A DNA stretch of 64,000 nt, from NCBI GenBank assembly GCA_963719085.1, contig CAVRAL010000001.1, positions 352,378 to 416,377 of the forward strand, written 5' to 3'. The translations under genes were made by a program, and so were the position numbers. Source of the stretch: a candidate division FCPU426 bacterium. GTDB lineage: Bacteria > Oederibacteriota > Muellerivitia > Muellerivitales > Muellerivitaceae. Shown piece by piece: positions 5,137 through 59,270 of the stretch. Position 1 is the first letter of the stretch, and each line of letters begins with the position of its first letter. The notes beneath the pieces were generated by a model. It made no database searches. It saw only the letters and a list, made by a program, of their open reading frames with translations, and was not told where the DNA came from.

Positions 5137-5165
5137 TCGATATGCTAAAGAAAAACTGAATTTTA

Positions 5166-5752: not shown

Positions 5753-5753
5753 A

Positions 5754-5853: not shown

Positions 5854-5872
5854 AAAACTTTTGTGAGGTCTT

Positions 5873-6925
5873 ATGCCTTTTCCATTGGTTCGGCCGGTCG
5901 GCTTTAATTTCGGCGGCTGGATTTCCCAATCCACATTGGAAGACTCCCATGTGGAAACCTTTCTGTCCGAAAAAGATTTCAAAACCGTGGCCCAATGGGG
6001 TTTCAACTCCGTGCGCCTTCCGGTGGATGGTCCGTGGCTTTTTGAGAACGGCGGTCAGGGGCCGCTATCCAAGAAAAAACTGGAAGTCTTGAAAACCATC
6101 CTCCGCTGGTCGGCGGAGGCCGGGCTTTTAACCGTGTTGGACCTGCACCAGGTGCCCTGGCATTCTTTCGCGAAACCTGAGATCGAGAATTTGTGGAAAA
6201 GCGAAAAGGACCTGGATTCTTTCCGCGGTCTTTGGGCCGAATTGACCCACGCTTTGAAGGGGTTTGAAGGCCCGCTTTGGTTTGACTTGCTCAACGAGCC
6301 GACCGCCCAATCACCCTTGGATTGGCGAAAACCCGCCAAGCTCTCTTATGAGACGGTCCATCGGGAAGACCCGAACCGGATCATCGTTTTAGAATCCACC
6401 CGTTGGGGTTCGGTCCAAACGATTGAGGATTTGGCCCAGGCCGTGCAGGGACCCCAATTGGTCCATAGTTTTCATTTTTATGAGCCCATGTGCGTGACCC
6501 ATCAAAGGGCGCCTTGGTGGAAGGAAGGCCATCCTTATAAGGAGACCGTTCTTTATCCGGGACCCATTCCCAAAGCGAAAGACTACTTGGCGGGAGAACT
6601 TCCGGCGGATACCCGCAAAAGGCTGGAGTTTGAGGGTTCGCTCGAATGGAATAAGGACGCCCTGCGGGAGTTGTTGAAGCCGGTGGAAAAATTAGTGAAA
6701 CAGGGTTTCACCCTTTATTGCGGGGAATTTGGGGTTTTCGAACAGGCGCCCCGGTCTTCCCGGCTGAATTGGATGGCGGACGTGGTTGAGATTTTTGGCC
6801 AATTGGGGGTAGGTTGGGCCTATTGGAACTATAAGTGGCTTGATTTTGGCATCTGGCCCAAGCAAAGTGGGCGGACGGGCCCGCTGGATCAAGAAATGTT
6901 GTCGATTCTTCAAAAGGGGATTTAA
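5873..6925 (+). CDS. glycoside hydrolase family 5 (cellulase-like), no signal peptide
   Basis: (beta/alpha)8 GH5 hallmarks incl. catalytic NEP (FDLLNEPT) and C-terminal GEFG nucleophile region. Confidence 0.75.
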   Translation: MPFPLVRPVGFNFGGWISQSTLEDSHVETFLSEKDFKTVAQWGFNSVRLPVDGPWLFENGGQGPLSKKKLEVLKTILRWSAEAGLLTVLDLHQVPWHSFAKPEIENLWKSEKDLDSFRGLWAELTHALKGFEGPLWFDLLNEPTAQSPLDWRKPAKLSYETVHREDPNRIIVLESTRWGSVQTIEDLAQAVQGPQLVHSFHFYEPMCVTHQRAPWWKEGHPYKETVLYPGPIPKAKDYLAGELPADTRKRLEFEGSLEWNKDALRELLKPVEKLVKQGFTLYCGEFGVFEQAPRSSRLNWMADVVEIFGQLGVGWAYWNYKWLDFGIWPKQSGRTGPLDQEMLSILQKGI

Positions 6926-6928
6926 CGA

Positions 6929-9238: not shown

Positions 9239-9261
9239 AGATAATTATCGAAAACCTATTT

Positions 9262-9356
9262 CACCACCAAGGCACCAAGACGCCAAGGACGGCTAAACTG
9301 AGGGTATTTAACCCAAATTATTTTTGCTTTCTTGGTGTCTTGGTGCCTTGGTGGTA
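9262..9356 (+). repeat. family-A element, copy A2
   Basis: TCACCACCAAGGCACCAAGACGCCAAGGACGGC ... GCTTTCTTGGTGTCTTGGTGCCTTGGTGGTAAAA; ends 42 nt before hisS GTG. Confidence 0.75.
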
Positions 9357-9397
9357 AAACATTCTGTGACTTTACCCATAATAAAAAGGTTTGAACC

Positions 9398-10726
9398 GTG
9401 AGCGACAACACTAAATTCGGCCCGCCCAAGGGGATGCGGGATTGGCTGCCGAAAGAAACCCTCCTGCGCCAAAAACTGATCCGCCTCATCGAAACTCATT
9501 ACCAACTTTACGGCTTTGAACCTATTGATACCCCGGTGATGGAAAATATCGAGGTGTTGCAAGGCAAGGGCGGCGGCGAGAACGAGAAGCTGATGTTTAA
9601 AGTTCTCAAGCGCGGTGAGGAGCTTGAAAAGGCCAAGGCATCGGGTGATTTAGCTGACATGGGCCTGCGTTTCGACATGACGGTTCCTTTGGCCCGCTAT
9701 TACGCCAATCACGCCAATGACCTTCCTAAGCCTTTCCGTTGTTCCCACATCGGCCCCGTCTGGCGGGCGGACCGGCCCCAGCGCGGGCGCTTCCGTGAAT
9801 TTTACCAATGCGACATCGACATCGTGGGCGGGGCTTCCGATTCCTACGAAGTGGAATTACTTTTGGCCACGGACCGGGTTTTGAAAGCCTTGGGCGTGGG
9901 GAAATTTAAAATTCGAATCAGCGACAAACAATTGCTCACCATGGTGCTTCGCCGCATTGGGACTCCGGTGGAAAAATTGGCGGGCGTGGCGGTGGCCATC
10001 GACAAGATGGACAAGCTTTCGTTCGACGACGTGAAAAAAGAAATCGCCGGTTTGGGCTTGGAGAGCGAAAATCTTGAAAAGATCGCGCTTTTCCTCAATA
10101 GCGCCAAGAGCGGCTTCCTTGATTTGACTTTATTTAAAGAAGTGAAAATCACCGAACTCGGCAAAAAGATCCAGTCCATCTGCGACCGGGTCAAGGCTGT
10201 CAATCCCGAAGCCAATGTGGTTTTTGATCCTTTGCTCGTCAGGGGATTTGACTATTACACCGGGCCGGTTTTTGAGATCAACGTGGAAGACAAGGACTTT
10301 ACCTTTTCGATCGGCGGCGGCGGCCGTTATGACGGACTCATTGAAAAATTGGGCGGCCCCAAAGATACCCCGGCGGTTGGCTTGTCCCTCGGTTTTGAGC
10401 GCATCCTGACCATTCTTTTAGAAAAAAACACCACGGGTCCCCAGGCGCTTCAATCCCGGGTTCTAATCGTGAACAACGGCCAAACTGAAAAGGACATCCT
10501 GGACCTGGCGGAGAAACTTCGCTCCGGGGGCCTTTCGGTGGAAACGGTTTTAGAAAGTAAAAAAATGGGCCAGCAGTTGGAAGCGGCCCAGAAGAACGGC
10601 GTGGAGTTCGCCGTGACTGATTTCAAACCCGGCGGCGAAACCTTCAAAGTGCGCCGCCTGTCCACCCGGCAGGACGCCGAAATGGGCCTGGAAGAGTTGA
10701 AAAAACAAGTTAGAAGTTTGAAGTGA
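9398..10726 (+). CDS. hisS: histidyl-tRNA synthetase
   Basis: GTG start; class II aaRS motifs (HIGPVWRADRPQRGRFREFYQCD, GGGGRYDGL) plus C-terminal anticodon-binding domain (so HisS, not HisZ). Confidence 0.85.
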   Translation: MSDNTKFGPPKGMRDWLPKETLLRQKLIRLIETHYQLYGFEPIDTPVMENIEVLQGKGGGENEKLMFKVLKRGEELEKAKASGDLADMGLRFDMTVPLARYYANHANDLPKPFRCSHIGPVWRADRPQRGRFREFYQCDIDIVGGASDSYEVELLLATDRVLKALGVGKFKIRISDKQLLTMVLRRIGTPVEKLAGVAVAIDKMDKLSFDDVKKEIAGLGLESENLEKIALFLNSAKSGFLDLTLFKEVKITELGKKIQSICDRVKAVNPEANVVFDPLLVRGFDYYTGPVFEINVEDKDFTFSIGGGGRYDGLIEKLGGPKDTPAVGLSLGFERILTILLEKNTTGPQALQSRVLIVNNGQTEKDILDLAEKLRSGGLSVETVLESKKMGQQLEAAQKNGVEFAVTDFKPGGETFKVRRLSTRQDAEMGLEELKKQVRSLK

Positions 10727-10896: not shown

Positions 10897-10934
10897 CGCC
10901 TTCCTTGGCGCCTTGGCGTCTTGGCGGTGAAATT
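10897..10934 (+). repeat. family-A solo right arm, copy A3
   Basis: CGCCTTCCTTGGCGCCTTGGCGTCTTGGCGGTGAAA with no upstream partner; ends 20 nt before aspS GTG. Confidence 0.7.
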
Positions 10935-10953
10935 TAGGTAATAGGAGTTTTTC

Positions 10954-12744
10954 GTGGCGGAAATGCTCGGCGGCTGGAAAAGATCACACAAGTGCGGGGA
11001 CCTGCGGGCCTCCGATGTGGGCAAGACCGTGACCCTGATGGGCTGGGTGCATCACCGCCGCGACCATGGCGGCCTGGTATTCGTCGACCTGCGCGACCGT
11101 TACGGCGTGACCCAGATCGTGTTTGATCCCCAATTGGCCGACAAGGTCCATAAGCAATCGCATCTCATTCGCAACGAATGGGTTTTGGCCGTGAAAGGTG
11201 AAGTGACCAAGCGGCCTGAAGGCACCGTGAATCCGAAACTCGCCACCGGTGAGATCGAGATCCGCTGCAGTGAAGTGAAGGCCTTGAATCCATCCCAAAC
11301 CCCGGTGTTCCCGATTGAGGACGATGTGGATGTGGCTGAGGAAGTGCGTTTGGAATACCGCTACCTGGACCTGCGCCGGGAATCGATGAAAAACAAATTG
11401 GTCCTGCGGCATAAAACCGCCCAGGCGATCCGTTCCTATATGAACGCCAACGACTTTTTGGAAATTGAGACGCCCATCCTGATCAAAAACACCCCGGAAG
11501 GCGCCCGGGAGTATGTGGTGCCGAGCCGTATCTATCCCGGAAAGTTTTTCGTCTTGCCGCAGAGTCCTCAGTTGTTCAAGCAAATTTCCATGATCTCGGG
11601 GTTGGACCGCTATTACCAAATCGCCCGTTGTTTCCGAGACGAGGATCCCCGCGCTGACCGCCAACCCGAGTTCACCCAAGTCGATATCGAGATGTCCTTC
11701 ATCGACGAGGACGATATCTACGCCATCGGCGAGGGCGTCATGAAGACTGTCTTCAAAGAAATCCTGGACGTCGATTTGGTCACGCCTTTTCCCCACATTC
11801 CTTTCAACGAAGCCATGGAAAAATACGGCTCGGACAAGCCGGACCTGCGTTTTGACCTGCCCATGGTCAATGTGACGACGATCGCCAACCAAGCCGACTT
11901 TAAAGTTTTCAAGGATGTGATCGGCCGGGGCGGCGTGGTGAAGGCGCTCAACGCCAAGGGCTGCGCGGATTTTTCCCGCAAGGACCTGGAAGACCTGACC
12001 GGCTTCGTGGGCAAATACGGCGCCAAGGGGATGGCTTGGTTCAAGGTGAAGGATGGCAAGCTTGATTCCAACATCACCAAATATTTCAATGAGACAGTCC
12101 AAAAGGAATTGCTGACGGCTTTGAAGGGCGAGGAAGGGGACTTGTTCCTCTTTGGCGCGGACAATTTGGACGTGGTCAACGAATCCCTCGGCGCGCTCCG
12201 GGTGGAGATCGCCCGCCGCAAGGGCTTGATCGAAAAAGGACCCAAGTGGGCCTTTTGCTGGGTGGTGGATATTCCCATGTTCGGCACCGACGAAAAGGGA
12301 AGGCGCTTCGCGATGAACCATCCTTTTACCTCGCCCAAGGAAGCCGACGTGGCTTTGCTGGATACCGATCCGATGAAGGCCCTCTCCAAGGGTTATGACT
12401 TGGTTTTGAACGGCTTTGAGCTGGGCGGCGGCAGTATTCGTATTCATGACGTGGAACTGCAGTCCAAAATTTTCAAACTGCTTGAGATCAGCCCCGAGAA
12501 GGCCCAAGAGCGTTTCGGCTTCCTGTTGAAAGCCCTCAGCTATGGCGCCCCGCCGCACGGCGGAATGGCTTTCGGTTTGGACCGGGTGGTGATGCTTTTG
12601 ACCGGCGCGGCCAACATCCGGGAAGTCATCGCTTTCCCCAAAACCGCCAAGGCCATCGATTTGATGACGGGCTCGCCTTCCGAAATTGACCCGGACCTGA
12701 TCAAGGATCTCAAGATCAAGATCGAGCTTGAGGATTTGACTTAA
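10954..12744 (+). CDS. aspS: aspartyl-tRNA synthetase
   Basis: GTG start with SD AGGAG 6 nt upstream; N-terminal OB fold (HKCGDLRASDVGKTVTLMGWVHHRRDHGGLVFVDLRDRYG), class II core, GAD insertion, 596 aa. Confidence 0.9.
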   Translation: MAEMLGGWKRSHKCGDLRASDVGKTVTLMGWVHHRRDHGGLVFVDLRDRYGVTQIVFDPQLADKVHKQSHLIRNEWVLAVKGEVTKRPEGTVNPKLATGEIEIRCSEVKALNPSQTPVFPIEDDVDVAEEVRLEYRYLDLRRESMKNKLVLRHKTAQAIRSYMNANDFLEIETPILIKNTPEGAREYVVPSRIYPGKFFVLPQSPQLFKQISMISGLDRYYQIARCFRDEDPRADRQPEFTQVDIEMSFIDEDDIYAIGEGVMKTVFKEILDVDLVTPFPHIPFNEAMEKYGSDKPDLRFDLPMVNVTTIANQADFKVFKDVIGRGGVVKALNAKGCADFSRKDLEDLTGFVGKYGAKGMAWFKVKDGKLDSNITKYFNETVQKELLTALKGEEGDLFLFGADNLDVVNESLGALRVEIARRKGLIEKGPKWAFCWVVDIPMFGTDEKGRRFAMNHPFTSPKEADVALLDTDPMKALSKGYDLVLNGFELGGGSIRIHDVELQSKIFKLLEISPEKAQERFGFLLKALSYGAPPHGGMAFGLDRVVMLLTGAANIREVIAFPKTAKAIDLMTGSPSEIDPDLIKDLKIKIELEDLT

Positions 12745-12911: not shown

Positions 12912-13400
12912 ATGCTCAAATCGAAAGCTTTTTTCATGATCGCTTTAATCGCCACCCTCTGGACCATGGGTTGCGCCGGTAATAAGCGCATTGAGGGAAC
13001 TGACGCTCCTGCCGCGCCGGAAAGCGTTGATACCGCCGCCGCGCCCGCGCCTCCTGAAGCCCCGCCTCCTCCGGAGGCCCCCGCGCCGCCCGCTCCGACC
13101 CCGGTTGCCACCGCTGAGGGCGGCGCCGGTACCCGCTATATCGTGGTCAAGGGCGATACCCTTTGGGATATCTCCTATAAGTCCTTGGCTTATCACGACA
13201 GCTTTCAATGGCCCTTGATTTTCAAGGCCAACCGGGACCAGATTAAGGACCCGGACTTGATCTATCCCAAACAGGAATTTATGATCCGCCATGATTATTC
13301 GGATGTGGATGTGACGAAAGCGAAGAACGACGCTTCCGCGACGCCTAAATACGTGCCGCATACCCAGCCGCGGGAAACCCTGCCGGTTGATTACTTTTAA
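12912..13400 (+). CDS. secreted LysM-domain protein with Pro/Ala-rich linker
   Basis: Signal peptide, PAPPEAPPPPEAPAPPAPTP linker, LysM-like YIVVKGDTLWDIS...LIYPKQEFMI. Confidence 0.75.
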   Translation: MLKSKAFFMIALIATLWTMGCAGNKRIEGTDAPAAPESVDTAAAPAPPEAPPPPEAPAPPAPTPVATAEGGAGTRYIVVKGDTLWDISYKSLAYHDSFQWPLIFKANRDQIKDPDLIYPKQEFMIRHDYSDVDVTKAKNDASATPKYVPHTQPRETLPVDYF

Positions 13401-13444
13401 GTTCGGGAAGCGAAGTCCGGAAAAGCAGGATTTTAAAACCGAAA

Positions 13445-13489
13445 ACTCCCTTTTTCCCGGTTGGGAAGAGGGAGTTTTTTTTTAATGTT
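13445..13489 (+). terminator. intrinsic terminator after LysM gene
   Basis: AACTCCCTTTTTCCCGG-ttgg-GAAGAGGGAGTT then TTTTTTTTT. Confidence 0.55.
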
Positions 13490-13506
13490 TTTAATTGAAA
13501 CAATTT

Positions 13507-13686
13507 TACCGCCAAGGCGCCCCGCTGGCCCATTGGGGGCCAAACGAGCGGGACAGTGCCGCCCCCATTAATTTTTTTATGGAGGGGCGGCCGCCAAGTT
13601 CGCCAAGAACAGCGAAAGACGAAGGCTTTTAAAACATATTTGGATTTAGCCTTTCTTGGCGAACTTGGCGCCTTGGCGGTGAAAAA
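13507..13686 (+). repeat. family-A element, copy A4, with module-G insertion (13522-13587) in left arm
   Basis: TACCGCCAAGGCGCC[insert]GGCCGCCAAGTTCGCCAAGAACAGCGAAAGACGAAGGC ... GCCTTTCTTGGCGAACTTGGCGCCTTGGCGGTGAAAAAG; ends 39 nt before phoH TTG. Confidence 0.7.
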
Positions 13687-13724
13687 GTTTTTTTTGAGAT
13701 TTAAATCTATCAGGAGTTTTTGAA

Positions 13725-14714
13725 TTGACCCAAGCCGTCAGCCACCGCATCACTTTGGATGACCATCAGGAATGCGTCCGATTATTCGGGGAAAAAGACC
13801 ATACCCTGAAATTGATCCGTGATTCTTTCGCCGTGACCCTCATCGCCCGCGGGAACGAACTGTTGTTGTCCGGGGAACCGCTGGAAGTTTCCCACGCGTC
13901 CCAGGTGATTGAGCGCTTGCGGCTTCATTTAAAGAAAAACACCGAAGGCTACCTTTCGGGGGCGAAAGTCAGCCAGACCATCGCCGAAGCCAAGGGCCAA
14001 ACGCTGGAAGAACCGGAGCCGGCGGCGGCGCGGGAAACCATCCTCATCTCGTCTCGTAAAAAGCCCATCGCGGCGCGCACGGACAACCAGCAAAAATACG
14101 TGGACGCCATCCGAAGCCACGACATCGTCTTTGGCGTGGGGCCGGCGGGAACGGGAAAAACTTATTTGGCGATGGCCATGGCGGTCTCCGCCCTGCGGGA
14201 CGGGCTGGTGGAGCGCTTGATCCTGACCCGCCCGGCGGTGGAGGCGGGGGAAAAGCTCGGATTTTTGCCGGGGGACCTGCAGGATAAGGTGGATCCCTAT
14301 TTGCGTCCGCTTTATGACGCGCTTTATGACATGGTGGATTACGAAAAGTTACAGCGCCTGTTCCAACAGCGCGTGGTGGAAGTGGCGCCGCTGGCCTATA
14401 TGCGGGGACGGACCCTGTCGAACGCTTTTATTATTTTGGACGAGGCCCAGAACACCAGCCCCGAGCAAATGAAGATGTTTTTAACCCGCACCGGCGCCGG
14501 ATCCAAAGTGGTGGTGACCGGCGACGTGACCCAGGTGGACCTGCCCAGCGGCAAGGCCTCGGGCCTGGTCCACGCGCAGGAAGTCTTGAAGGGGCTGCCG
14601 GGCATCGGCGTGATTCATTTCCAACCGCAGGACGTGGTGCGGCACAAATTGGTCCAGACCATTGTGCGGGCTTACGACAGCCATGAAGCCGCCAAAGCCG
14701 AAAAACCGGTTTGA
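13725..14714 (+). CDS. phoH: PhoH-like ATPase (YbeZ)
   Basis: TTG start, SD AGGAG; Walker A GVGPAGTGKTYLAMA; conserved ybeZ-ybeY-corC gene order. Confidence 0.9.
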   Translation: MTQAVSHRITLDDHQECVRLFGEKDHTLKLIRDSFAVTLIARGNELLLSGEPLEVSHASQVIERLRLHLKKNTEGYLSGAKVSQTIAEAKGQTLEEPEPAAARETILISSRKKPIAARTDNQQKYVDAIRSHDIVFGVGPAGTGKTYLAMAMAVSALRDGLVERLILTRPAVEAGEKLGFLPGDLQDKVDPYLRPLYDALYDMVDYEKLQRLFQQRVVEVAPLAYMRGRTLSNAFIILDEAQNTSPEQMKMFLTRTGAGSKVVVTGDVTQVDLPSGKASGLVHAQEVLKGLPGIGVIHFQPQDVVRHKLVQTIVRAYDSHEAAKAEKPV

Positions 14715-15178: not shown

Positions 15179-16564
15179 TTGGATTACTACCTCGCCACCC
15201 ATTTAATCGTCCTGGCCGCCATGCTTTTGGTCTCCATGTTTTTTTCGGCGGTCGAGACAAGCCTTTTGTCCGCCCCCCGGAGCCTGATCCAGGCGCAATC
15301 CGAAAAGTCGGGGCTTTTGGGGATCGCTTTCCGGGAATGGGCCGAGCATCCCAACCGCATCCTGACCACGGTCTTAATCGGAAACAACTCGATCAACGTT
15401 TTAGCCACCATCCTGGCGGCCTATACGGCCGTTCACTTGGCGGACCTGAACCAGTGGAGCCAGGTGGTCACGGGAACCGTGACCTCCGTTTTCGTCACCT
15501 TCATCGTGATCGTTTTCGGGGAAATGATCCCCAAGATCACCGCCCGCAGTTTGGCGGCGCGCGTGGTGGTGTGGCTCATTATTCCCATCTACTTGATTGA
15601 CCGGGCGATCCGCCCCATCACGGTCGGCATGGCCCGTATTCTTATTTTCTTCGTTCCGAGCCTGGCCAACACCACGGTCTCCCAAGTGACGGAAGAGGAC
15701 ATCAAGCACTTGATCGAGGTGGGGCGCCAGGACGGAACCATCCGCGAGGATGAGCAGGACATGATCCACTCGGTCTTCAAATTCAGCGATACCACGGTGA
15801 ACCAGCTGATGATCCCGCGCACCGAGATGTTTTGCGTGGACCTGAAAATCGAGCTTAACGCGCTTTTGGACATGGCCATCCAGACCGGTTATTCCCGGGT
15901 GCCGGTTTATAAAGGCAACGTGGACAATATCATCGGCATCATCCACACCCGGGACCTGCTTTCCATTTGGCGCAACCAGGGGCTGATTGTGATCCAGGAT
16001 CTTTTGCGAAAACCCTATTTCGTGCCGGAGACCATGCGGGTGGACCGGCTTTTGCGGGAATTTCGCCGGGGCAAAATCCATATGGCCATCGTGGTGGATG
16101 AATACGGTGGCACCTCGGGCCTGGTGACCCTGGAGGATTTGGTCGAGGAAATCATCGGCGAGATAAGAAATGAGCACGAGCCCGAGGATAAGTCCATGGA
16201 GCGGCAGGAAGATGGATCCTATGTCATTGAGGCGGGCACGTCCTTGGACGAGATTAATGAAAGCCTGGGCACGCATCTCACCCCCCAGGGTGAAGTCACG
16301 ACCTTAGGCGGTTATTTGACCGAGCAAAACGGCAAGGTTCCGAAAAAGGGCCGGGTCTTGGACGAATACGAAATCACCTCCACTGTTTTGGAATCCGATG
16401 AGAAGAAAGTCATCAAGGTGAAGCTGGTGAAGAAGGACGTTCCTTATCCGCCCCAGGAAGCGGAACAAAAACCGGCGGCGCCCAAACCGCGTAAAAGGCG
16501 GGTTAAACAGCCGGCCCCGGCGCAAGAACAAGTGGCCGAGTCGGAAGCGCCGAAGGAAAAATAA
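15179..16564 (+). CDS. corC: CorC/HlyC family transporter (CNNM TM domain + CBS pair + CorC C-terminal), Lys/Pro-rich tail
   Basis: 4 TM DUF21 N-term, tandem CBS, transporter-associated C-domain. Confidence 0.85.
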   Translation: MDYYLATHLIVLAAMLLVSMFFSAVETSLLSAPRSLIQAQSEKSGLLGIAFREWAEHPNRILTTVLIGNNSINVLATILAAYTAVHLADLNQWSQVVTGTVTSVFVTFIVIVFGEMIPKITARSLAARVVVWLIIPIYLIDRAIRPITVGMARILIFFVPSLANTTVSQVTEEDIKHLIEVGRQDGTIREDEQDMIHSVFKFSDTTVNQLMIPRTEMFCVDLKIELNALLDMAIQTGYSRVPVYKGNVDNIIGIIHTRDLLSIWRNQGLIVIQDLLRKPYFVPETMRVDRLLREFRRGKIHMAIVVDEYGGTSGLVTLEDLVEEIIGEIRNEHEPEDKSMERQEDGSYVIEAGTSLDEINESLGTHLTPQGEVTTLGGYLTEQNGKVPKKGRVLDEYEITSTVLESDEKKVIKVKLVKKDVPYPPQEAEQKPAAPKPRKRRVKQPAPAQEQVAESEAPKEK

Positions 16565-16574
16565 AAAGTTTGAA

Positions 16575-16712
16575 CCACAGAGTACACAGAGTTACACGGA
16601 GTAAGGCGGCAGGCTGCATCAATTGAAGTTTGAACAAGTTTTTAACCAAGTGATTTATCTGTCATAAAAGGACTTTGTTTTACTCTGTGTAACTCTGCGT
16701 ACTCTGCGGTAA
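16575..16712 (+). repeat. inverted-repeat hairpin with tandem 9-mer arms (CACAGAGTA units), same architecture as family A, ending GCGGTAAA
   Basis: ACCACAGAGTACACAGAGTTACACGGAGTAAGG ... TTTACTCTGTGTAACTCTGCGTACTCTGCGGTAAA; followed by T-run; between corC and PHP gene. Confidence 0.7.
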
Positions 16713-17588: not shown

Positions 17589-18542
17589 ATGAGCGAAATG
17601 GACATTGTCCCCCAAGCGGATTTGACCCCGCCCGAGGACTTTATTTGCGGCGCGGTGGCGATTTTAGGAAAGCCCAATGTGGGCAAGTCGACCTTTATGA
17701 ATACCGCCATGGGCCACAAGCTGGCCATCGTGTCGCCCCGGCCCCAAACCACCCGGGGCTCCATGGCGGGCATTTACCAGGAAGAGGGATGTCAGATCGT
17801 TTTTTATGACACGCCGGGAATCCATCAGCCGAAGAACAAACTTTCCAAATTTATGCTTCATGAAGTTGAGGAAGTTTTGGACGGAGCCGACGCGGCGTTA
17901 TTTTTAATCGATGTGCGCCTAGGGATTACGGATGAGGAACGGCTGGTGGCCGAGTGGCTTAAAAGTTTTAAAAAGACCGCCTGGGTGGTTTTGAACAAGG
18001 TGGATCAGGTGGCCTTGACCCGGGTGGGGGCGGTGGCCGACAAGGTCCGCAAGGAACTGGGGGATTGGCCCATCCGGTCAATGGCCGCCCTGACGGGGAA
18101 GGGCGTGAAGGACATCATTACGGAGCTTAAGCGGGTGCTGCCCCGGCAGGCGGCGCTTTTCCCGCCGGAAGAATTGACCAACAAGAACATGCGGGAAATC
18201 GCTTCCGAATTGATCCGGGAACAGTGCTTTTTGCAGTTAAAAGACGAAATTCCTTACGGCGTGGCCGTCGTGGTGGAAAAATATGAAGAGCGGCAACCGC
18301 CCGAGCCGATCCTGATCCAAGCGACGATTTACGCCGAAAAAGACAGCCAAAAGGGTATTTTAATCGGAGCCGGGGGCAAACAGCTCAAGGCCATTGGGAC
18401 GGCGGCGCGAAAAGAGATTGAGGCCCTGACTGACCAAAAAGTTTTCCTGGAATTATGGGTGAAAGTCCTTAAGAATTGGCGCAAGGACGAGTCAGTTTTG
18501 AAGCGGCTCGGCTATCAGGCGCCGAAGAAACCAAAGAGTTAA
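17589..18542 (+). CDS. era: GTPase Era
   Basis: G1 ILGKPNVGKST, G3 DTPG, G4 NKVD, C-terminal KH domain; abuts previous stop. Confidence 0.9.
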   Translation: MSEMDIVPQADLTPPEDFICGAVAILGKPNVGKSTFMNTAMGHKLAIVSPRPQTTRGSMAGIYQEEGCQIVFYDTPGIHQPKNKLSKFMLHEVEEVLDGADAALFLIDVRLGITDEERLVAEWLKSFKKTAWVVLNKVDQVALTRVGAVADKVRKELGDWPIRSMAALTGKGVKDIITELKRVLPRQAALFPPEELTNKNMREIASELIREQCFLQLKDEIPYGVAVVVEKYEERQPPEPILIQATIYAEKDSQKGILIGAGGKQLKAIGTAARKEIEALTDQKVFLELWVKVLKNWRKDESVLKRLGYQAPKKPKS

Positions 18543-18557
18543 TCCAACGGAGGCCTC

Positions 18558-19610
18558 ATGAATCGTGTCCATCCCAAAACCAAGCTGGTTTGCACCATCG
18601 GCCCCGCTTGCCGCTCCGACGCCATGCTGGAAAAACTTCTGGTGGCCGGCATGAACGTGGCCCGGATCAATTTCGCCCACGGCACCATTGAGAAGAACGG
18701 CGAGGACATCCACCGCGTCCGCAAGGCTTCCCTCAAAACCAAGCGCCCCTGCCAAATTTTGGCCGACCTGCCGGGCCCCAAGATCCGCGTAGGCCAATTG
18801 CGGCACGAGCCCGTGAACCTGGTGCATGGCAAGACCGTTTGGCTCACCACCCGAAAAATTTCCGGCAACGTGGCCCATATCCCCATCGAGTATCCCCAGC
18901 TTACCCAAAGCGTGAAGAAGGGGAGCGTGATCTACCTCAATGACGGCTTCATGCAACTGCTGGTCCTTTCGGTCAAGGGGACCGAGGTGGAATGTAAGGT
19001 GCTGGTGGGCGGGGAATTGTTCACCCACAAGGGATTGAACCTTCCCTCGGCGAAGCTTTTCGTGGACCCTGTGACACCCCATGACCTGGAGATTTTGGAG
19101 TACGGCATGAAGGAGGGGGTGGACTTCTTCGGGGTTTCCTTTGTCCAACGGGCAGCCGATCTGCTGAAAGTTCGCGCCTTCGCCAGCAAGCGGGGGAAAA
19201 TCGTCAAGATCATCGCCAAAATTGAGCGTTCGGAAGCCATCCGCAACATCGATTCCATCCTCAAGGTCACCGACGGAATCATGGTGGCCCGGGGCGACTT
19301 GGGCGTGGAAGTTCCCATTGAGACCATGCCCATCCTCCAAAAGCGGCTCATCGCCAAGGCCAACTGGGCCGGGGTGCCGGTCATCACGGCCACCCAGATG
19401 CTGGAATCCATGACCCACAACATCCGCCCTACCCGGGCGGAAGTCACCGACGTGGCCAACGCCATTTTGGACGGAACCGACGGCGTCATGCTCTCGGGCG
19501 AGACCGCCATCGGCGAGGACCCGGTCAATACGGTGGAAATGATGGGCAAGATCGCCGTTTCGGTGGAAAAAGCTTTCCTGAAGGAAAAATCAGCGGTGCA
19601 TTGGTTTTAA
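18558..19610 (+). CDS. pyk: pyruvate kinase, short form (A+B domains only, ~350 aa)
   Basis: [11 protein letters not shown]...[11 protein letters not shown]...; barrel and lid present, ORF stops where the C-terminal effector domain normally begins. Confidence 0.75.
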
Positions 19611-19628: not shown

Positions 19629-19800
19629 TTAGCAATGATATCCCGGGATTCCATATTGTGGTTAAAGATACCCGGGACAATGTCGCTCTCCCCTAACTTC
19701 TAAATGAGGAAGCGACGCGAACGCAGATGGAAGCCGATAGAAGATTTGTGAACCATTTGAATTTGTTTAATCCGCGTGTATCTGCGTTCATCATTGCTAA
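19629..19800. repeat. family-D inverted repeat, copy D2 (split left arm with internal CCCGGG hairpin)
   Basis: TTAGCAATGAT[...ATCCCGGGAT...ATACCCGGGAC...]GCGAACGCAGATGG ... TATCTGCGTTCATCATTGCTAA; overlaps GT1 stop codon. Confidence 0.6.
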
Positions 19801-21104: not shown

Positions 21105-21264
21105 TGTCGTTGCGAGGGACGAACTTTGTGGCGAAGCGACCCCAGTTCATGGATTGTGTTCACTTTGCGGCGGACGGCCATCTCCAAAGGCATATTAAAT
21201 ACCCACTAACTGAGGTTGCTTCGTCGCTAACACCCATGAAAGACGCTCCCCGCAATGCCGTCGA
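21105..21264. repeat. MITE-like element B, copy 1 (imperfect ~16-bp terminal inverted repeats)
   Basis: Left TGTCGTTGCGAGGGACGAACTTTG, right GACGCTCCCCGCAATGCCGTCG; interior ~70% identical to copy 2. Confidence 0.6.
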
Positions 21265-21369
21265 ACCCCAGCTCTGCTTTCGCCTCGGGTTAAAACTTTT
21301 CAGGAAAAAAGGCCTGTTCATTCAGCCTCCGCCGGGTAAAATCGGGGCACCTTCTGGAGAAGGAAGCTC

Positions 21370-23368: not shown

Positions 23369-23375
23369 AAAAAAC

Positions 23376-23480
23376 TACGCACGCTAAGACGCAAAGACGC
23401 CAAGGAAGGCAAAGATTTTTGTTCGATGCCTCCCTAAGAGCTTCGTCGTTCTTAGCGTCTTTGCGTCTTTGCGTGAGCGG
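23376..23480 (+). repeat. family-A element, copy A5 (pyrR-pyrB intergenic)
   Basis: CGCACGCTAAGACGCAAAGACGCCAAGGAAGGC ... CGTCGTTCTTAGCGTCTTTGCGTCTTTGCGTGAGCGG; ends 13 nt before pyrB ATG. Confidence 0.75.
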
Positions 23481-23492
23481 TTGGTGGGCCGT

Positions 23493-24425
23493 ATGAATTG
23501 GCGCTCCAAAGACCTGCTCACGCTTGAGGAACTCACTGCCGCCGAGATCCAAATGATTTTGGATACGGCTTCCTCGCTGAAAGAAGTCTCGACCCGTTCG
23601 GTAAAAAAAGTGCCGGCCTTGCGGGGCCGCACCGTGGTGCTTTTCTTCCAAGAGCCTTCCACCCGCACCCGGGTTTCCTTTGAACTGGCCGCCAAGCGCA
23701 TGAGCGCCGACATCCTGAACGTCCAAACCGCTTCCTCGTCGCTAGTCAAGGGCGAGACCTTGATTGACACGGTCAAAACGCTGGAAGCCATGACCATCGA
23801 CGCGATCGTGGTGCGGCATTCCTGCTCGGGCGTGCCCCAGATGCTGTCGAATGTCTTGAAAGCCTCCGTCATCAACGCGGGAGACGGTTCCCATGAGCAC
23901 CCGACCCAAGGCTTGCTTGACCTTTTCACCATCCGCGAGCACAAAGGCAAAATCGAGGGCCTCACCGTCACCATCGTGGGCGACGTGGCCCACAGCCGGG
24001 TGGCCCGGTCCAATATCCACGGCCTTACCAAGCTCGGGGCCAGGGTCCGGGTTTGCGCGCCGCCCACGCTCATTCCGATGGGAATTGAAAAAATGGGAGT
24101 CGAAGTTTTTCACGACCTGGACAAGGCCCTGGACGGGACCGACGTGGTTTATGTGCTGAGGCTGCAGCTCGAGCGGCAAAAGAAAAATCTGTTTCCCACC
24201 ATCCGCGAATATTCCATGCTTTACGGCATGACCAACGAGCGGCTGAAACGGGCCAAAAAAGGCGCCATCGTGATGCATCCCGGGCCCATGAACCGCGGGG
24301 TGGAAATATCCTCCGGCGTGGCCGACGGGCCGGCATCGGTGATCGACGAACAGGTCACCAACGGGGTCGCGGTCCGAATGGCGGTTTTGTACCTGCTCCA
24401 AGGCGAAAAAAATGAAACCAATTAA
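23493..24425 (+). CDS. pyrB: aspartate carbamoyltransferase catalytic subunit
   Basis: STRTR carbamoyl-phosphate motif, HPTQ, 310 aa; ATG 23493 preferred because track TTG 23469 lies inside the repeat arm. Confidence 0.9.
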
Positions 24426-24547
24426 CCGCCAAGACGCCAAGTCCGCCAAGAGAGGCGTTACAGATAAATCGATTTGGGACACCGAAAATATTTCTTCTCT
24501 AAAATCTTTAATCCGGACTTGGCGCGCTTGGCGTCTTGGCGGTGAAA
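24424..24547 (+). repeat. family-A element, copy A6 (pyrB-pyrC intergenic)
   Basis: AACCGCCAAGACGCCAAGTCCGCCAAGAGAGGC ... CCGGACTTGGCGCGCTTGGCGTCTTGGCGGTGAAAA; ends 14 nt before pyrC ATG. Confidence 0.75.
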
Positions 24548-24560
24548 ATGGAGCGCGTTT

Positions 24561-25856: not shown

Positions 25857-25961
25857 GGCTCACGCAAAGACGCTAAGATGCCAAGGACGGCAAAGTCTGA
25901 TTTTGAGAAAAACTTAATGCTTTTGTAGTTCTTGGCGGACTTGGTGTCTTGGCGGTGAAAA
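25857..25961 (+). repeat. family-A element, copy A7 (pyrC-carA intergenic)
   Basis: GGCTCACGCAAAGACGCTAAGATGCCAAGGACGGC ... AGTTCTTGGCGGACTTGGTGTCTTGGCGGTGAAAAA. Confidence 0.7.
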
Positions 25962-49873: not shown

Positions 49874-50419
49874 ATGGAACACCGACTCCACGTTTATTAT
49901 GGCTACGGCAAAGGCAAAACCACCTCGACCGTGGGGCTCCTCATCCGGGCCTTAGGCGCCGGCCAAAAAGCCGCCCTGGTTCAGTTCGACAAGGGTTTCG
50001 ACGGCGTGAATGAGCACTATTCGGAGCGCAAAATCCTCCGGACTTTGCCCAACCTCCAACTTTTTCCCTTCGGCAAAGAAAGGGTTTTGGGCCCCAACGC
50101 TTTTCGGTTCAAGAATATCGAGGGGGACTTTGAGGAAGCCCGGGCGGCCTTGGCCAAGGCCCGGGAACTGATCCGGTCGGATTTGGATCTTTTGGTGTTG
50201 GACGAGATTTTGGCCGCGGTCATGGTGAAGTTGATCAGCCGTGAGGAAGTGATGGACTTGATCGCGCTTTACGACCAAAACCGCCGGTGTGAGTTGGTTT
50301 TGACGGGTCATCAAGTTTGGCCCGAACTGGTGGAAAAGGCGGACCTGGTCACCGAGATGCGCAAAGAAAAACATTATTTCGACCAGAAGGCGCCGTCCAA
50401 AAAGGGGATTGAGTATTGA
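49874..50419 (+). CDS. ATP:cob(I)alamin adenosyltransferase (CobA/CobO/BtuR family)
   Basis: YYGYGKGKTTSTVGLLIRALGAGQKAALVQFDKG P-loop region typical of CobA. Confidence 0.75.
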   Translation: MEHRLHVYYGYGKGKTTSTVGLLIRALGAGQKAALVQFDKGFDGVNEHYSERKILRTLPNLQLFPFGKERVLGPNAFRFKNIEGDFEEARAALAKARELIRSDLDLLVLDEILAAVMVKLISREEVMDLIALYDQNRRCELVLTGHQVWPELVEKADLVTEMRKEKHYFDQKAPSKKGIEY

Positions 50420-50420
50420 A

Positions 50421-50640
50421 CCTTTTCACCGCCCCGCCCGGCCTAGTTAGGCCGAAGCAGGCGGGACATACCACCTTCGATATCATTTTATATATGGATG
50501 GTGGTGCCAAGACGCCAAGTCCGCTAAGTGAGGCATGCATCTGTATTTTACGGAATCAAGAATTTTAACCGTTATTCTTAAGCCGAATTTTTTTAATCTG
50601 AAATAAGGTTGATTTAACTTGGCGTCTTGGCGATGAAATA
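50421..50640 (+). repeat. family-A element, copy A8, long form with module G (50432-50499) inserted after TTCACCGCC
   Basis: TTCACCGCC[module G]GGTGCCAAGACGCCAAGTCCGCTAAGTGAGGC ... AACTTGGCGTCTTGGCGATGAAATAGG; ends 27 nt before ATG 50667. Confidence 0.7.
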
Positions 50641-50666
50641 GGTTCATTTTATATTCGTGGAGAAAT

Positions 50667-51317
50667 ATGGATTCTCAAAAAGCAAAAGCGATCCTGCCTT
50701 GGGCTTCTCTTTCTTTCCTGTTTATTCTGGCGGTATTTTCCCACGGGGTTTGTCCTGAATTTTTTTTCCCCGCTTTTGATGGCCGCTCGATTTTGATCCT
50801 GGGAGCCCTGGGCGTGGCGGTTTTTGGAGCGCTGGCCTTTCAAAAAAACGCCGGGATCAACCGCCGCCGCCGCGAGGCCTCGCGTTTGATCCAGGCCTTG
50901 CGCGGGAAACGCGCCCCCTTGGGCGAGCCTACGGAAAACGAGGTGATCTTGGCGGGCCGGGTGGTTTCCCGTTTGACGCGCAACGCGGACGAGGACCTTC
51001 GCGAGATCAATCCTGATTTTTCCCTCGCCTCGCTCCACCGCTTGATTCGTTATCTTCCGCTGCTTCTGGACGAGGTGGAATGCGAGGAGGACGCCTTGAT
51101 CCGCTGGGGCGTGGTGGGGACTTATCTAGGGGAAACCCTCTGCCGCCAGGCGGGCTGGAATTGGTTTTTCAAGCCCGATCCGGCTTTGCGGCAGTTTTCC
51201 TTCCTGTCCTCGGTCCTTCAGCGAGGTCCCGGCCGGGAACTGGACCCTTACGCTTGGGCCGCCGATTTATTCGACCGCCGGCGGGGTTTGGCCGGCTTGT
51301 TGGACGAGGTGAAATAG
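50667..51317 (+). CDS. hypothetical membrane-anchored protein (216 aa, 2 TM + cytoplasmic domain)
   Basis: SD GGAG; clean ORF; 1-nt overlap (TAGTG) with next gene. Confidence 0.55.
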   Translation: MDSQKAKAILPWASLSFLFILAVFSHGVCPEFFFPAFDGRSILILGALGVAVFGALAFQKNAGINRRRREASRLIQALRGKRAPLGEPTENEVILAGRVVSRLTRNADEDLREINPDFSLASLHRLIRYLPLLLDEVECEEDALIRWGVVGTYLGETLCRQAGWNWFFKPDPALRQFSFLSSVLQRGPGRELDPYAWAADLFDRRRGLAGLLDEVK

Positions 51318-55292: not shown

Positions 55293-55304
55293 GGACCGGA
55301 AAAC

Positions 55305-55514
55305 CGATTTGCCGCCCTGCCCGGGCTAACTGGGCCGAAGCAGGCGGGACATACCACGCTCAGTATCATTTTATAAATGGAGGCTGGTGCCAAGACGCCA
55401 AGAACGGCATTTGATTTTTTAAAAAAGACGAATTTAGTTGTTGGGTAAAAATGGAATTTTTACGGTTTAGTTCTATGGTTCACTTGGCGAACTTGGCGTC
55501 TTGGCGGTGAAGGG
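55305..55514 (+). repeat. family-A element, copy A9, long form with module G (55311-55384)
   Basis: TTTGCCGCC[module G]TGGTGCCAAGACGCCAAGAACGGC ... GGTTCACTTGGCGAACTTGGCGTCTTGGCGGTGAAGGGG. Confidence 0.7.
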
Positions 55515-55943
55515 GCTTTTCTTTATTTTCTTCGTGTTTTCTTGCGTCGTTCTTTTTTACGGCGGGGTTCTTTTTTTAAACTGGGGTTTTCGCTCCAGCG
55601 GCGGGCGCCGGTCCGGCGGTCTTTGGGCGCGCGGGCCACGGAAGGTGATTTTTTGAATCCTAGGGCGGCAAGTAAACCATTCAAGAAACCGGCCATGGGG
55701 CGCCTTTCGAAGGACGAATTTCAAGGATGGTAAGGCCTCAACTCCCAAACATCAATCCGGATTTGGCCCCGCTTCCATAGGCTCAAAAATGTCCATTCGT
55801 CCATTATTTGACTGTTCTGGCCTTAGGCGCGTCCGGCCCCGGCTTTTTGAAAGCGCCTTTTTATGGGGCTTTTTCCCTTGGCATTGAAAATGCACATCAC
55901 TTTAGGCGTCTTCAAAATCAGGTTGGGGAAAGCCGCTTATTCA

Positions 55944-57162: not shown

Positions 57163-57219
57163 AAAATCCTCCTATGAATGTTTGGCTTAAAGAAACTTCG
57201 AATTTCCGGCAAAATCGAT

Positions 57220-57254
57220 TTCACCGCCAAGACGCCAAGTGCGCCAAGTGAAGC
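57220..57254 (-). repeat. family-A solo arm in reverse orientation (copy A10), upstream of minus-strand DoxX gene
   Basis: Plus strand TCACCGCCAAGACGCCAAGTGCGCCAAGTGAAGC = rc of GCTTCACTTGGCGCACTTGGCGTCTTGGCGGTGA; orientation follows downstream gene. Confidence 0.7.
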
Positions 57255-57403: not shown

Positions 57404-58072
57404 ATGGTAACCACGAACCCCCAAACCCTTTCGTTGAAAGTAAACGAAATTTACCTGTCCCTGCAAGGCGAGTCCACCTACGCCGGGGTGCCTTGCGTGT
57501 TCGTGCGCTTGACCGGATGCCCCCTGCGCTGTGTTTGGTGCGACACCGCTTACGCCTTTTATAACGGCGAGGATATGGAGCTGGAAAAAATCGTGGACAA
57601 GGTCCGTTCCTTCGGGGTGCCGACAGTGGAATTGACCGGGGGAGAACCCTTGGCGCAGGAAGGCGCCTTCCGCTTGTTGGAGCGGTTGGTGGAAGAGGAA
57701 TTTCAGGTGTTGTTGGAAACCAGCGGCGCGGTGGACGTGGCCCGGGTGCCGAAAGCGGTGGTGAAAATCCTCGACATCAAGTGTCCCGGATCGGGCGAGG
57801 AAGGCCGCAACCTTTGGGAAAACCTCAACCACTTGGTCCAGGGCCAGGACGAGATTAAGTTTGTCCTGAAAGACCGCGCCGATTATGATTACGCCAAAGC
57901 GGTGATCCAGGAGCGGCGGCTGGTCGGCCGGTTCACCCTGCTTTTTTCCGCCGTCCATAAAAGCCTGGAGCCCCAAACTTTGGCCGAATGGATCATCGCC
58001 GACCGATTGCCCGTGAAATTCCAGCTTCAGATGCATAAAATCATTTGGCCCGGCGAGACGAAAGGCCGATGA
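57404..58072 (+). CDS. queE: 7-carboxy-7-deazaguanine synthase
   Basis: IYLSLQGESTYAGVPCVFVRLTGCPLRCVWCDTAY radical-SAM QueE signature. Confidence 0.85.
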   Translation: MVTTNPQTLSLKVNEIYLSLQGESTYAGVPCVFVRLTGCPLRCVWCDTAYAFYNGEDMELEKIVDKVRSFGVPTVELTGGEPLAQEGAFRLLERLVEEEFQVLLETSGAVDVARVPKAVVKILDIKCPGSGEEGRNLWENLNHLVQGQDEIKFVLKDRADYDYAKAVIQERRLVGRFTLLFSAVHKSLEPQTLAEWIIADRLPVKFQLQMHKIIWPGETKGR

Positions 58073-58103
58073 AATAGGTTTTTGATTTAAATGTGAGGTT
58101 ATC

Positions 58104-58826: not shown

Positions 58827-58969
58827 TGTCGTTGCGGGGAGCGAACTTTGCGACGCGGCAATCTCAGTTCGTGGGTTGTTTAGTCTTAACTCTCAAGATG
58901 TATTAAGAGGCCATAAACTGGGATTGCTTTGTCGCTTAAACCAATGAAAGACGCTCCTCGCAATGACGG
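58827..58969. repeat. MITE-like element B, copy 2
   Basis: Left TGTCGTTGCGGGGAGCGAACTTTG, right GACGCTCCTCGCAATGACGG; shared interior blocks CAGTTC-TGG-TTGT and TTGCTT-GTCGCT-A..CATGAAAGACGCTCC. Confidence 0.6.
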
Positions 58970-59270
58970 TTGACCGGCCTGTTCTGTCGCTCTTGCCGAG
59001 AGTATGGTTTCGAATTCTTTTTCCCGCCCATTTTTCGCCCGCGCCGGGTCCTAGTCCTCATCCCTAAAACAATTTTAGCCCTTTAAATAAACAGGACCGA
59101 CCCATCGGTCGCCAATGGTTGGAGGCGGGAAAATTGGGTAAAAATTGCCCAACTTTTATTTGCTGACTACTTTAGCAACCAAAAAAGGTGGCTGTTAATG
59201 CAGGTTTAACGCCATATTTCTAAATCTAATGATAACATTTAACCCTAAACAAACAGGGGGTTCCTCTACC

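Follow-up and report, generated by a model that had tools for sequence, protein, structure and literature searches.

A two-hairpin cassette of about 74 nt nested in palindromic intergenic repeats of an uncultured peat-associated bacterial lineage

Module G is a repeated DNA cassette of about 74 nt (range 72-76 nt) that lies inside palindromic intergenic repeats and is predicted to form two hairpins. Eight copies, falling into four subtypes, were found: four in the window (the whole 64-kb stretch of DNA that was analysed) and four in two metagenome contigs, L050 and L065, which come from the same or a very close species. It is a real repeated cassette without a match in Rfam, yet of a well-known kind of element. 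The reading that we favour, and consider probable, is that module G is an interchangeable building block of lineage-specific mosaic, hairpin-forming intergenic repeats, analogous to REP/BIME, ERIC, Correia and BOX.

The copies in the window are c50 (50433-50506), c55 (55316-55389), c13 (13521-13592) and c19 (19642-19717), all on the + strand. Subtype G1 comprises c50, c55 and the copy in the left arm of the L050 element; G2 comprises c13 and the copy in the right arm of L050; G3 is represented by L065 7803-7877, and G4 by c19 and L065 5154-5229. The first-pass annotation had described c50, c55 and c13 as three homologous insertions, and all three are real; the fourth, the diverged c19 on a different arm family, had been overlooked. 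Its estimate of about 85% identity between c50 and c55 over some 95 nt agrees with the measured value of 85.3% over 95 nt (83.8% over the 74-nt module), and c13 is indeed more diverged, with 62-66% identity to these two. The 25-mer GGCCGAAGCAGGCGGGACATACCAC, noted as identical between c50 and c55, occurs exactly twice, at 50450 and 55333, with 0 expected in shuffles.

Two covariance models were used to look for further copies. The first, R1, was built from c50-type copies and searched against about 160 kb, where it picked up all five copies known at that stage and nothing else; c50 scored 106.7 bits (E 2e-21), c55 95.1 bits and c13 35.2 bits (E 1.5e-5). The second, R2, was built from six copies. 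It scored c50 at 95.4 bits and c13 at 70.5 bits, and added the two G4 members, L065 5154-5229 and c19 (22.6 bits, E 0.003), whose membership rests on E values of about 0.002-0.003 from a model that is only roughly calibrated. Judged by eye on the alignment, the two share about 80% identity over some 100 nt of module and left arm.

Copies beyond the window, which the first-pass annotation had proposed looking for, thus exist in both L050 and L065. L050 (Ga0265336_10012780) is the sole genuine locus among five returned by a metagenome scan. It holds a family-A element between convergent genes, with a module in both arms as an inverted pair; the module on the left resembles c50, and that on the right, which is on the opposite strand, resembles c13. 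L065 is the closest relative reached, its ortholog of a 1051-aa protein encoded in the window being 82% identical. The sample of one relative is a Sphagnum metagenome (PMC9584203). A Logan contig from sample ERR11630394, which carries the same genes, stops within the shared portion of the c50 module, and a second Logan contig passes through the unique c13 module and then stops in the A arms; both end inside elements because these sequences are repeats.

Wider searches were negative. The degenerate core GGSCSAARCRRGCGGGACAKW was sought in GTDB genomes, one per species, and gave 48 loci, all of them single chance matches in unrelated taxa and mostly within coding sequence; the GTDB representatives therefore do not include the species. 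A scan of viral contigs likewise gave only chance matches. A peptide profile of the spurious ORFs that run across the module (...SIYKMI..VCPACFG...) had no match among 5.8 billion proteins. Rfam 15 gave no match in the whole window at the gathering score, and none in the region 50380-50680 at E values up to 10, and no tRNA or tmRNA was found in the window. No earlier description of module G was found in a limited literature search.

The composite elements have inverted termini of the AACCTATTTCACC ... GGTGAAATAGGTT type, and all eight copies share one slot in a long palindrome: an outer stem of 7-19 bp lies on one side of the module and the periodic inner arm on the other, and the orientation relative to the arm is constant. 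A complete element consists of five parts. A short conserved terminus, approximately AACCTATTTCACC ... GGTGAAATAGGTT, forms the outer stem. This is followed by the optional 72-76-nt two-hairpin cassette, module G; by an inner arm of two to three tandem 8-10-nt units (GCCAAGNN, GAACGCAGAT, CGGAGTT and others); by a central loop, AT-rich but without relation from copy to copy; and by a mirror-image right arm, which may or may not carry a cassette of its own.

In the c50 element, the left terminus and 5' strand of the outer stem, AACCTTTTCACCGC (50419-50432, +), pairs with GCGATGAAATAGGTT at the right end. After the module come an inner left arm of periodic GCCAAG units, GCCAAGACGCCAAGTCCGCTAAG (50506-50528, +), an AT-rich central loop (50529-50617) unrelated to the loops of other copies, and the right arm and terminus CTTGGCGTCTTGGCGATGAAATAGGTT (50618-50644, +), which lacks a module and ends 23 nt before an ATG at 50667. 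The c55 element starts with the terminus AAAACCGATTTGCCGC (55300-55315, +) and has its inner left arm at 55389-55408 (+), followed by a central loop and by the right arm and terminus at 55483-55520 (+); it is flanked by the 1051-aa gene (+) and a conserved 57-aa ORF (-). In the c13 element, the left terminus is a long outer stem, AATTTTACCGCCAAGGCGC (13502-13520, +), that includes one GCCAAG unit, and the inner left arm, central loop and right arm (13653-13685) together occupy 13592-13685 (+). This element is placed between an intrinsic terminator at 13441-13488 and the phoH start at 13725. Finally, the c19 element opens with GCAATGATA (19632-19640, +), which pairs with TCATCATTGC at 19788-19797, and continues after the module with an inner arm of a different family, GCGAACGCAGATGGAAGCCGAT, a central loop and a right arm (19717-19797, +). 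It lies between the convergent genes for pyruvate kinase (+) and a glycosyltransferase (-). The central loops are mostly unrelated between copies, the best comparison (z 6.2) being one short stretch.

Family A follows the formula TTTCACCGCC-GCCAAGACGCCAAG(TCCGCCAAG) ... AT-rich loop ... CTTGGCG(NN)CTTGGCGTCTTGGCGGTGAAA, and its arm motif CTTGGCGNNTTGGCG is found 14 times, where 0.21 matches would be expected. The first-pass annotation had described the module in elements of this family, but it is not specific to them: it also sits on GAACGCAGATG-type and CGGAGTT-type arms. The GCCAAG arm family carries c50, c55, c13 and both L050 copies; the GAACGCAGATG / GAACACGGAT family (GAACRCRGAT) carries c19 and L065 5154; and the CGGAGTT family carries L065 7803. 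Subtype follows arm family throughout, with G1 and G2 on GCCAAG, G4 on GAACRCRGAT (2 of 2) and G3 on CGGAGTT. The claim that all three first-described insertions occupy an identical point is correct for c50 and c55, which both follow (C)ACCGC(C), and fails for c13, which sits one GCCAAGNN unit deeper, after ACCGCCAAGGCGCC. Over the whole set, the left flank of the module varies (CACCGC(C), GGCGCC, GATAAAC, AATGATA, ACAGATG).

That the cassette separates long from short palindromic elements is supported. When the long element at 19632-19797 is aligned with the short one at 5165-5249, their arms correspond and the module falls in a clean gap of 76 nt. In family A, elements that lack the module are found at 24422-24546 and 57218-57247 and also in relatives, so that short and long forms are known in at least two arm families, family A and the GAACGCAGATG family. 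The homology between c50 and the left L050 copy is confined to some 125 nt, which start at AACCT, include the module and end with the last GCCAAG unit; the loops beyond are unrelated.

Both RNA and DNA folding give each block two hairpins joined by an ACAU(A) linker. Hairpin 1 is GC-rich and has a 5-nt bulge on its 3' side (AAGCA, AAACG or AAUCA), and the AT-rich box lies in the loop of hairpin 2. In c50, hairpin 1 spans 50433-50465 (+; CCCGCC-CGGCC-loop-GGCCG-AAGCA bulge-GGCGGG), the ACAU linker 50466-50469 (+), and hairpin 2 50470-50505 (+; ACCACC...GGTGGT). The corresponding hairpins are at 55316-55348 and 55353-55388 (both +) in c55, and at 13521-13552 (+; CCCGCT-GGCCC-loop-GGGCC-AAACG-AGCGGG) and 13558-13591 (+) in c13. 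Both c19 hairpins fall within 19642-19717 (+), with CCCGGG...CCCGGG as hairpin 1, ACAAU as linker and GTCGCT...AGCGAC as hairpin 2. The GC hairpin, with its 5-nt 3' bulge, and the AT-rich box of the first-pass annotation are present, as is the ACAUA linker. The segment ACAUACCAC, which had been described as single-stranded, is partly unpaired, but its ACCAC(C) forms the 5' strand of hairpin 2.

The fold of the c50 module has z scores of -3.7 as RNA and -5.8 as DNA, and that of c19 has z -3.9 as DNA. For c55 the values are 0.08 as RNA (55305-55403, module plus flanks) and -2.1 as DNA; this copy has a U-G pair and also a G-G mismatch, and the mismatch makes it fold less well than the other copies. 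The compensatory change that had been proposed between c50 and c55 is not there: the 3' side reads GCAGGCGGG in both, and the sole difference, C to T, is on the 5' side, where it gives a G-U pair or shifts the register. Between subtypes, true compensatory changes do exist. Across the six clear copies, 17 pairs were scored and 96% of the cells were paired, as against 27-51% in slid controls; seven of the 17 pairs had changed on both sides, and none of 500 shuffles reached the observed covariation score. In reading these figures, it should be kept in mind that the alignment was fitted to the model, that the changes represent about three independent splits rather than many separate events, and that the statistics are thin, there being only eight copies, drawn from two or three genomes that are very close. 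RNAalifold, run independently, returned the same two hairpins. Both stems of module G are kept by compensatory substitution.

Both hairpins are predicted equally well as RNA, as single-stranded DNA and on the complementary strand. The arms contain 14 G-T against 11 A-C mismatches, which is no excess of G-T, and the modules show only two one-sided pair changes, both U-G on the sense strand; assignment of the strand from wobble pairs was tried and is uninformative. Equal folding as DNA and antisense, together with the lack of a G-T excess, means that a role at the RNA level gains no direct support from these predictions. The composite elements as a whole fold strongly (c50, -81.3 kcal/mol, z -6.0; c13, -105.2 kcal/mol, z -9.8), and the predicted composite is a four-way junction made up of the outer stem, hairpin 1, hairpin 2 and a long inner stem. 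In these models, it is through the cassette that an otherwise simple long hairpin becomes a four-way junction. Twister, twister-sister, hammerhead, K-turn, attC and tRNA-like readings were considered and rejected, their defining motifs being absent and Rfam giving no match.

Seven of the eight copies begin 11-40 nt past a stop codon, sense to the gene concerned. The six copies in single-cassette elements are all on the + strand, which is the gene-sense strand, and in the window the + strand also has a positive GC skew. For a sample as small as this, the bias is compatible with use at the RNA level or with a replication-tied process on single-stranded DNA. The adjoining genes are functionally unrelated (cobA, the gene for the secreted 1051-aa protein, lysM/phoH, pyruvate kinase and queE). 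Elements of this system fill most of the co-directional intergenic spacers of the window, and some are placed within conserved gene strings (queE-queC, lysM-phoH).

Comparison of orthologous spacers shows rapid turnover. Between lysM and phoH, the window has a terminator followed by an A element with G2, L068 has the terminator only, with no element and with the phoH start directly after it, L055 has a CACAAAG-type palindrome, and L060 and L067 have other elements. The queE-queC spacer is 31 nt in the window; in L065 it holds an element of about 200 nt with G3, and in L066 an A element, also of about 200 nt, with a different cassette, H, in both arms. A third spacer, that of the 1051-aa gene and the 57-aa ORF, holds an A element with G1 in the window, a G4 element in L065 and an element with cassette H in L066. 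Orthologous sites gain, lose or exchange whole elements, and no site differs by the module alone. For whole elements, the mobility suggested in the first-pass annotation is plausible, given the filled and empty sites in relatives. Turnover of whole elements on so short an evolutionary scale fits mobile or recombining repeats and not a locus-specific regulator.

The sister species (L055 and L066, 94% AspS identity) has A arms but no module G. The same slot is occupied there by the two-hairpin cassette H, of which six copies were found in 37 kb, with the consensus ACRC-GCCSAAGGGCG-GCCCCGTTTCC...ATGTGGGGGC. Cassette H occurs on both strands (three copies each) and in both arms, with no strand bias. 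This weakens the strand argument for module G, as do the near-balanced arm mismatches and the failure of tblastn to find a Y1 transposase in the window. A rule that the module is found only on arms facing a gene 3' end was examined and rejected: it describes 8 of 8 G copies, but with three informative cases (p ~0.125), and it is contradicted by cassette H, which is present in both arms in a co-directional spacer.

The evidence is best accounted for if module G is a modular sub-element of the same general kind as the long forms of ERIC, the mosaics of BIME, the variants of Correia and the modules of BOX. Wilson and Sharp reportedly described, in 2006, short and long versions of ERIC, the difference being blocks of ~70 bp whose internal positions are fixed. 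The elements described here are likewise intergenic palindromes with length variants that arise from a block of ~70 nt at a fixed internal site, and they resemble the ERIC (IRU) elements of Enterobacteriaceae, which are imperfect palindromes in transcribed intergenic regions near gene ends. The likeness to ERIC is one of architecture only: no sequence similarity is evident, and ERIC copies have their whole internal sequence in common, whereas module G elements share only terminus, cassette and arm, with unrelated central loops. ERIC-type elements also have TA target duplications, and none is consistent in module G elements. Co-transcription of ERIC affects mRNA decay (PMC3184786).

REP/BIME/REPIN repeats offer a second parallel, being GC-rich imperfect hairpins that occur as singlets or inverted pairs and in mosaics with other short motifs. 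They are intergenic, often between convergent genes, stabilise upstream mRNA and bind host proteins (PMC3184786). Module G elements share with them imperfect GC-rich palindromes repeated intergenically (8 copies); the inverted pair in L050 and the cassettes in both arms in L066 recall two inverted REPs. They differ in that their arms are periodic tandem units, not palindromes, that the cassette comprises two unlike hairpins, and that their loops are not conserved, in contrast to REPIN spacers. In Correia elements (NEMIS/CREE, Neisseria), length variants of ~104-157 bp arise by presence or absence of an internal block, and in the BOX elements of pneumococci the number of modules is variable (boxA-boxB(n)-boxC). 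Both are co-transcribed and form long hairpins, and some copies have promoters or processing sites (PMC3184786). Neither has homology to module G; Correia elements are bounded by defined terminal inverted repeats with a TA duplication and contain an IHF site, and BOX modules follow one another in tandem instead of being nested within the arm of a palindrome.

Comparison with MITEs shows a resemblance for the whole elements. It is these, and not module G alone, that have terminal inverted repeats (AACCTATTTCACC ... GGTGAAATAGGTT), and presence or absence at orthologous sites was observed for them at queE-queC and lysM-phoH. No target-site duplication is consistent around the composites of c50, c55 and L065 7803, and the AGTTTTTTTT repeat around the c13 element sits in a low-complexity T run. 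A shared internal sequence, as in MITEs, is lacking, the loops being unrelated, and no parent IS was found in the available DNA. Nor does the cassette resemble a PATE derived from IS200/IS605, which would have two similar subterminal hairpins in direct orientation, no terminal inverted repeats and insertion 3' of a fixed tetra- or pentanucleotide, since its hairpins differ in sequence and shape and its left flank varies.

It is worth considering the promoter, terminator and coding readings of the module. The AT box had been proposed as a -10 element, and the module as a mobile promoter. A consensus scan of the three regions of c50, c55 and c13 for sigma-70-like -35/-10 pairs (16-18 nt spacing), which the lineage's own promoter consensus may not follow, found none in the AT box on the sense strand. 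The sole sense-strand match in these regions, TTGGCG-17-TATATT at 50627-50655, is downstream of the c50 module; other matches were weak antisense sites in c50 and c55, with TTGGCA of the arm as -35 and AATGAT as -10. The box itself is not conserved as TAnnnT, and reads TATATAT, TATAAAT, TTTTTAT, TTTTCAA, TTTATAC or TCTAAAT across the subtypes. No terminator-like site (GC-rich hairpin plus U tract) overlaps a module in the three scanned regions, and the sole strong terminator there is the separate hairpin at 13441-13488, upstream of c13. A protein-coding reading was rejected: frames from the ATG of ATGGAGG have 17-24 codons, run into arm and loop, and are not conserved.

Three other explanations of module G were weighed against the mosaic building block. 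The one that we rank highest, although we think it unlikely, takes module G to be a tiny non-autonomous mobile element, moving either by site- and orientation-specific insertion into the outer palindrome arm or by hairpin-recognising single-strand transposition, as in PATEs of IS200/IS605 or RAYT-driven REP. The former mode has a precedent in IS1397, ISKpn1 and IS621, which insert at one position and orientation inside REP-type repeats (PMC3184786); these are autonomous IS of 1-1.5 kb that encode a transposase, whereas module G has only 74 nt, codes for nothing and co-varies with the arm family that hosts it. Nesting at two unit positions of the A arm, CACCGCC for c50, c55 and both L050 copies and ACCGCCAAGGCGCC for c13, would be expected of an insertion, but the c13 position is also explicable by gain of one arm unit on the outside. 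The constant orientation, the existence of many A arms without the module and the presence of two different subtypes in the arms of L050 all favour movement, yet subtypes do not mix between arm families, and no solo copy outside palindromes was found in the ~330 kb searched. Direct repeats of 3-4 nt flank several copies (GCC in four, AAAC in L065 7803), but they are short and inconsistent (none in either G4 copy, imperfect in the right L050 copy) and overlap the module's own GC-rich ends. Two terminal hairpins recall the ends of IS200/IS605, but those of module G are unalike, which is not so for the left and right ends of IS608. The + strand location of all six single-cassette copies might reflect a single-strand process, but the sister cassette H has no such bias. 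Finally, no transposase was identified: tblastn of the 64-kb window, part of a contig of at least 1.44 Mb, with the one Y1_Tnp protein seen in a relative, the IS200-like one of L060 (7764-8288), found no Y1/HUH transposase.

Somewhat less likely still, in our view, is a dedicated structured RNA domain of the 3' UTR or intercistronic region that lies incidentally inside palindromic repeats and serves as a protein-binding or RNase-processing platform or as the source of a 3'-UTR-derived sRNA. Preservation of both helices by compensatory changes, conserved unpaired segments (the CGGGA-CA-nU linker, the AAnCR bulge and UAWAU-GGA in the loop) and the placement of every copy in sense to the gene whose 3' end it faces are what such a domain would show. 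On this argument, the elements inside conserved gene strings must also be transcribed or transcribable. Both one-sided changes are U-G on the sense strand, but two wobble pairs do not suffice for assigning a strand, and the module folds equally well antisense and as DNA. Rfam has no match even at E up to 10, the neighbouring genes have no function in common, and the module is absent at the same sites in relatives with 80-94% AspS identity, so that there is no locus-level conservation of the kind expected for a regulator. The original proposal, in which the AT box is a -10 and the module a portable promoter for the downstream arm and the next gene, ranks last and is very improbable. It draws on the AT-rich strings TATAAAT (c55) and TATATAT (c50), on the strong terminator upstream of c13, which leaves phoH in need of read-through or of a promoter in the element-filled 236 nt, and on the promoters carried by Correia and REP2 elements (PMC3184786). 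The three scanned copies have no sense-strand -35/-10 in the box, however, the box diverges in other subtypes (TTTTTAT, TTTTCAA, TTTATAC, TCTAAAT) and is a hairpin loop between conserved stems, and in three contexts (c55, c19 and L065 5154) the next gene is convergent, leaving nothing to drive. In L068, moreover, phoH directly follows the terminator with no element between them, and the operon is therefore independent of an element-borne promoter. A promoter reading of module G is thus unsupported.

We return to the interpretation of module G as a building block of mosaic repeats. The co-variation of subtype with arm, together with the 125-nt unit of homology, suggests that the cassette is inherited and dispersed as DNA together with its arm, and not as a free-standing mobile unit. 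Since the copies begin 11-40 nt past stop codons and elements lie inside conserved gene strings, the elements are most likely transcribed as 3'-UTR or intercistronic RNA, judging from position. The extra hairpins may then add to a stable multi-branch RNA, and could affect the stability of mRNA 3' ends, processing or upstream translation termination, by analogy with the structures of REP, ERIC and Correia, which alter mRNA decay, processing or translation termination (Delihas 2011, PMC3184786).

A bolder interpretation, to which we give little weight, is that these are half-elements of an undescribed class of repeats, with cassettes G and H as the most conserved core, acting either as a recognition structure for mobilisation or gene conversion or as a four-way-junction RNA domain. 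If this were true, a unit of terminus, two-hairpin cassette and periodic arm would have spread around unrelated local DNA, and the machinery would be specific for hairpins (HUH/Y1-like or other); as an RNA domain, it would control intercistronic processing in an uncultured peat lineage.

Module G alters no major open question. Its interest is that small mosaic repeats, which shape mRNA stability, operon polarity, genome plasticity and the quality of assemblies, have so far been characterised in few cultured groups, and here a modular system is seen in an uncultured lineage associated with Sphagnum and peat, where it turns over between relatives whose AspS is still 94% identical. On the practical side, these repeats break short-read assemblies, as seen in the Logan contigs that end inside them, and produce spurious ORFs. 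The cassette gives a direction to palindromes that are otherwise symmetric, and this makes it a marker for the spread of the elements and for action on one strand.

The majority of the co-directional gene spacers in the window are occupied by a long palindrome (2473-2658, 5165-5249, 5764-5853, 9259-9359, 16574-16710, 23373-23482, 24422-24546 and 25870-25960). The arms are built from a unit of 8-10 nt in 2-3 tandem copies, the unit types being GCCAAGAC, GCAAAGAC/GCTAAGAC, CACAGAGTA, CACCAAGG, GAACGCAGAT and AAGTTTTG, and the AT-rich central loops are unrelated to one another. Several palindrome families have the termini TTTCACC...GGTGAAA in common. From the right end of the palindrome to the next start codon the distance is 21-46 nt. 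In a relative's locus (L056, GCA_003163255.1), two palindromic blocks of repeated TTGTGCCA / TGGCACAA units lie 3' of aspS at 11840-12130; these are a further periodic-arm family within the same clade.

Arms can also exist unpaired, as demonstrated by two half-elements of the GCCAAG-type A arm. A right arm stands alone at 10904-10929, where it directly follows an intrinsic terminator and precedes aspS, and is kept in the 94% relative (L055, 9950-9975); a left arm stands alone in a divergent spacer at 57218-57247. Right arms with three units read TTGGCG-N17/18-TGAAAW just 5' of genes, and these arms, or a terminus-like string, are found at 10904-10935, 13655-13690, 24518-24550, 55483-55515 and 58068-58082. 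The pattern loosely mimics a -35/-10 pair. Given that the 'empty' queE|queC spacer also holds the terminus-like string GATGAAATAGGTT (58068-58080), the 'right terminus' of the palindromes may be part of the ordinary sequence upstream of genes.

The slot taken by module G in the window is occupied in the sister species (L055 and L066) by a different two-hairpin cassette, H, consisting of GCCSAAGGGCG and GCCCCGTTTCC..ATGTGGGGGC, immediately after TTTCACCGC-ACRC. It is found in L055 at 4301-4360 (+) and 18500-18560 (-), and in L066 at 13149-13195 and 15186-15230 (+) and at 15335-15386 and about 13860-13912 (-), one co-directional spacer having it in both arms. There is a loose likeness between the second hairpin of H and hairpin 2 of module G subtype G2 (CCCCCATTAAT).

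The family-A element c55, which carries a copy of module G, ends at 55520, 3 nt from the end of a very basic 57-aa ORF (MAGFLNGLLAALGFKK...RRKKERRKKTRRK) on the minus strand at 55523-55696, and its spacer is therefore convergent. The ORF is probably a real gene, since the gene calls of a close relative (L065) include one of 57 aa in the matching position and on the matching strand (5352-5525).

A separate repeat family comprises hairpins of ~150-160 nt that start GTCGTTGCGRGG...AACTTTG and end GACGCTCCYCGCAATG(A/C)CG, with two copies in the window (21106-21267 and 58828-58975) and a similar one in the 80% relative L060 (about 9820-9990); it has no Rfam match at the gathering score. The hisS-aspS spacer of L060 contains an inserted block (4331-9742) with a ParB-like gene, a DDE transposase and an IS200-like Y1 transposase (7764-8288), the last followed by a hairpin, CCCCGGGC-TTTA-GCCCGGGG, and being the sole HUH/Y1 gene among the clade loci viewed.

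Two Logan contigs from a sample with the same genes as the window end inside repeats, L001 at 3581 and L061 at both its ends; the repeats in question are module G, where the break comes after ...GGCCTAGTTAGGCCG, and A arms. The module G and A-arm repeats break up short-read assemblies of this organism.
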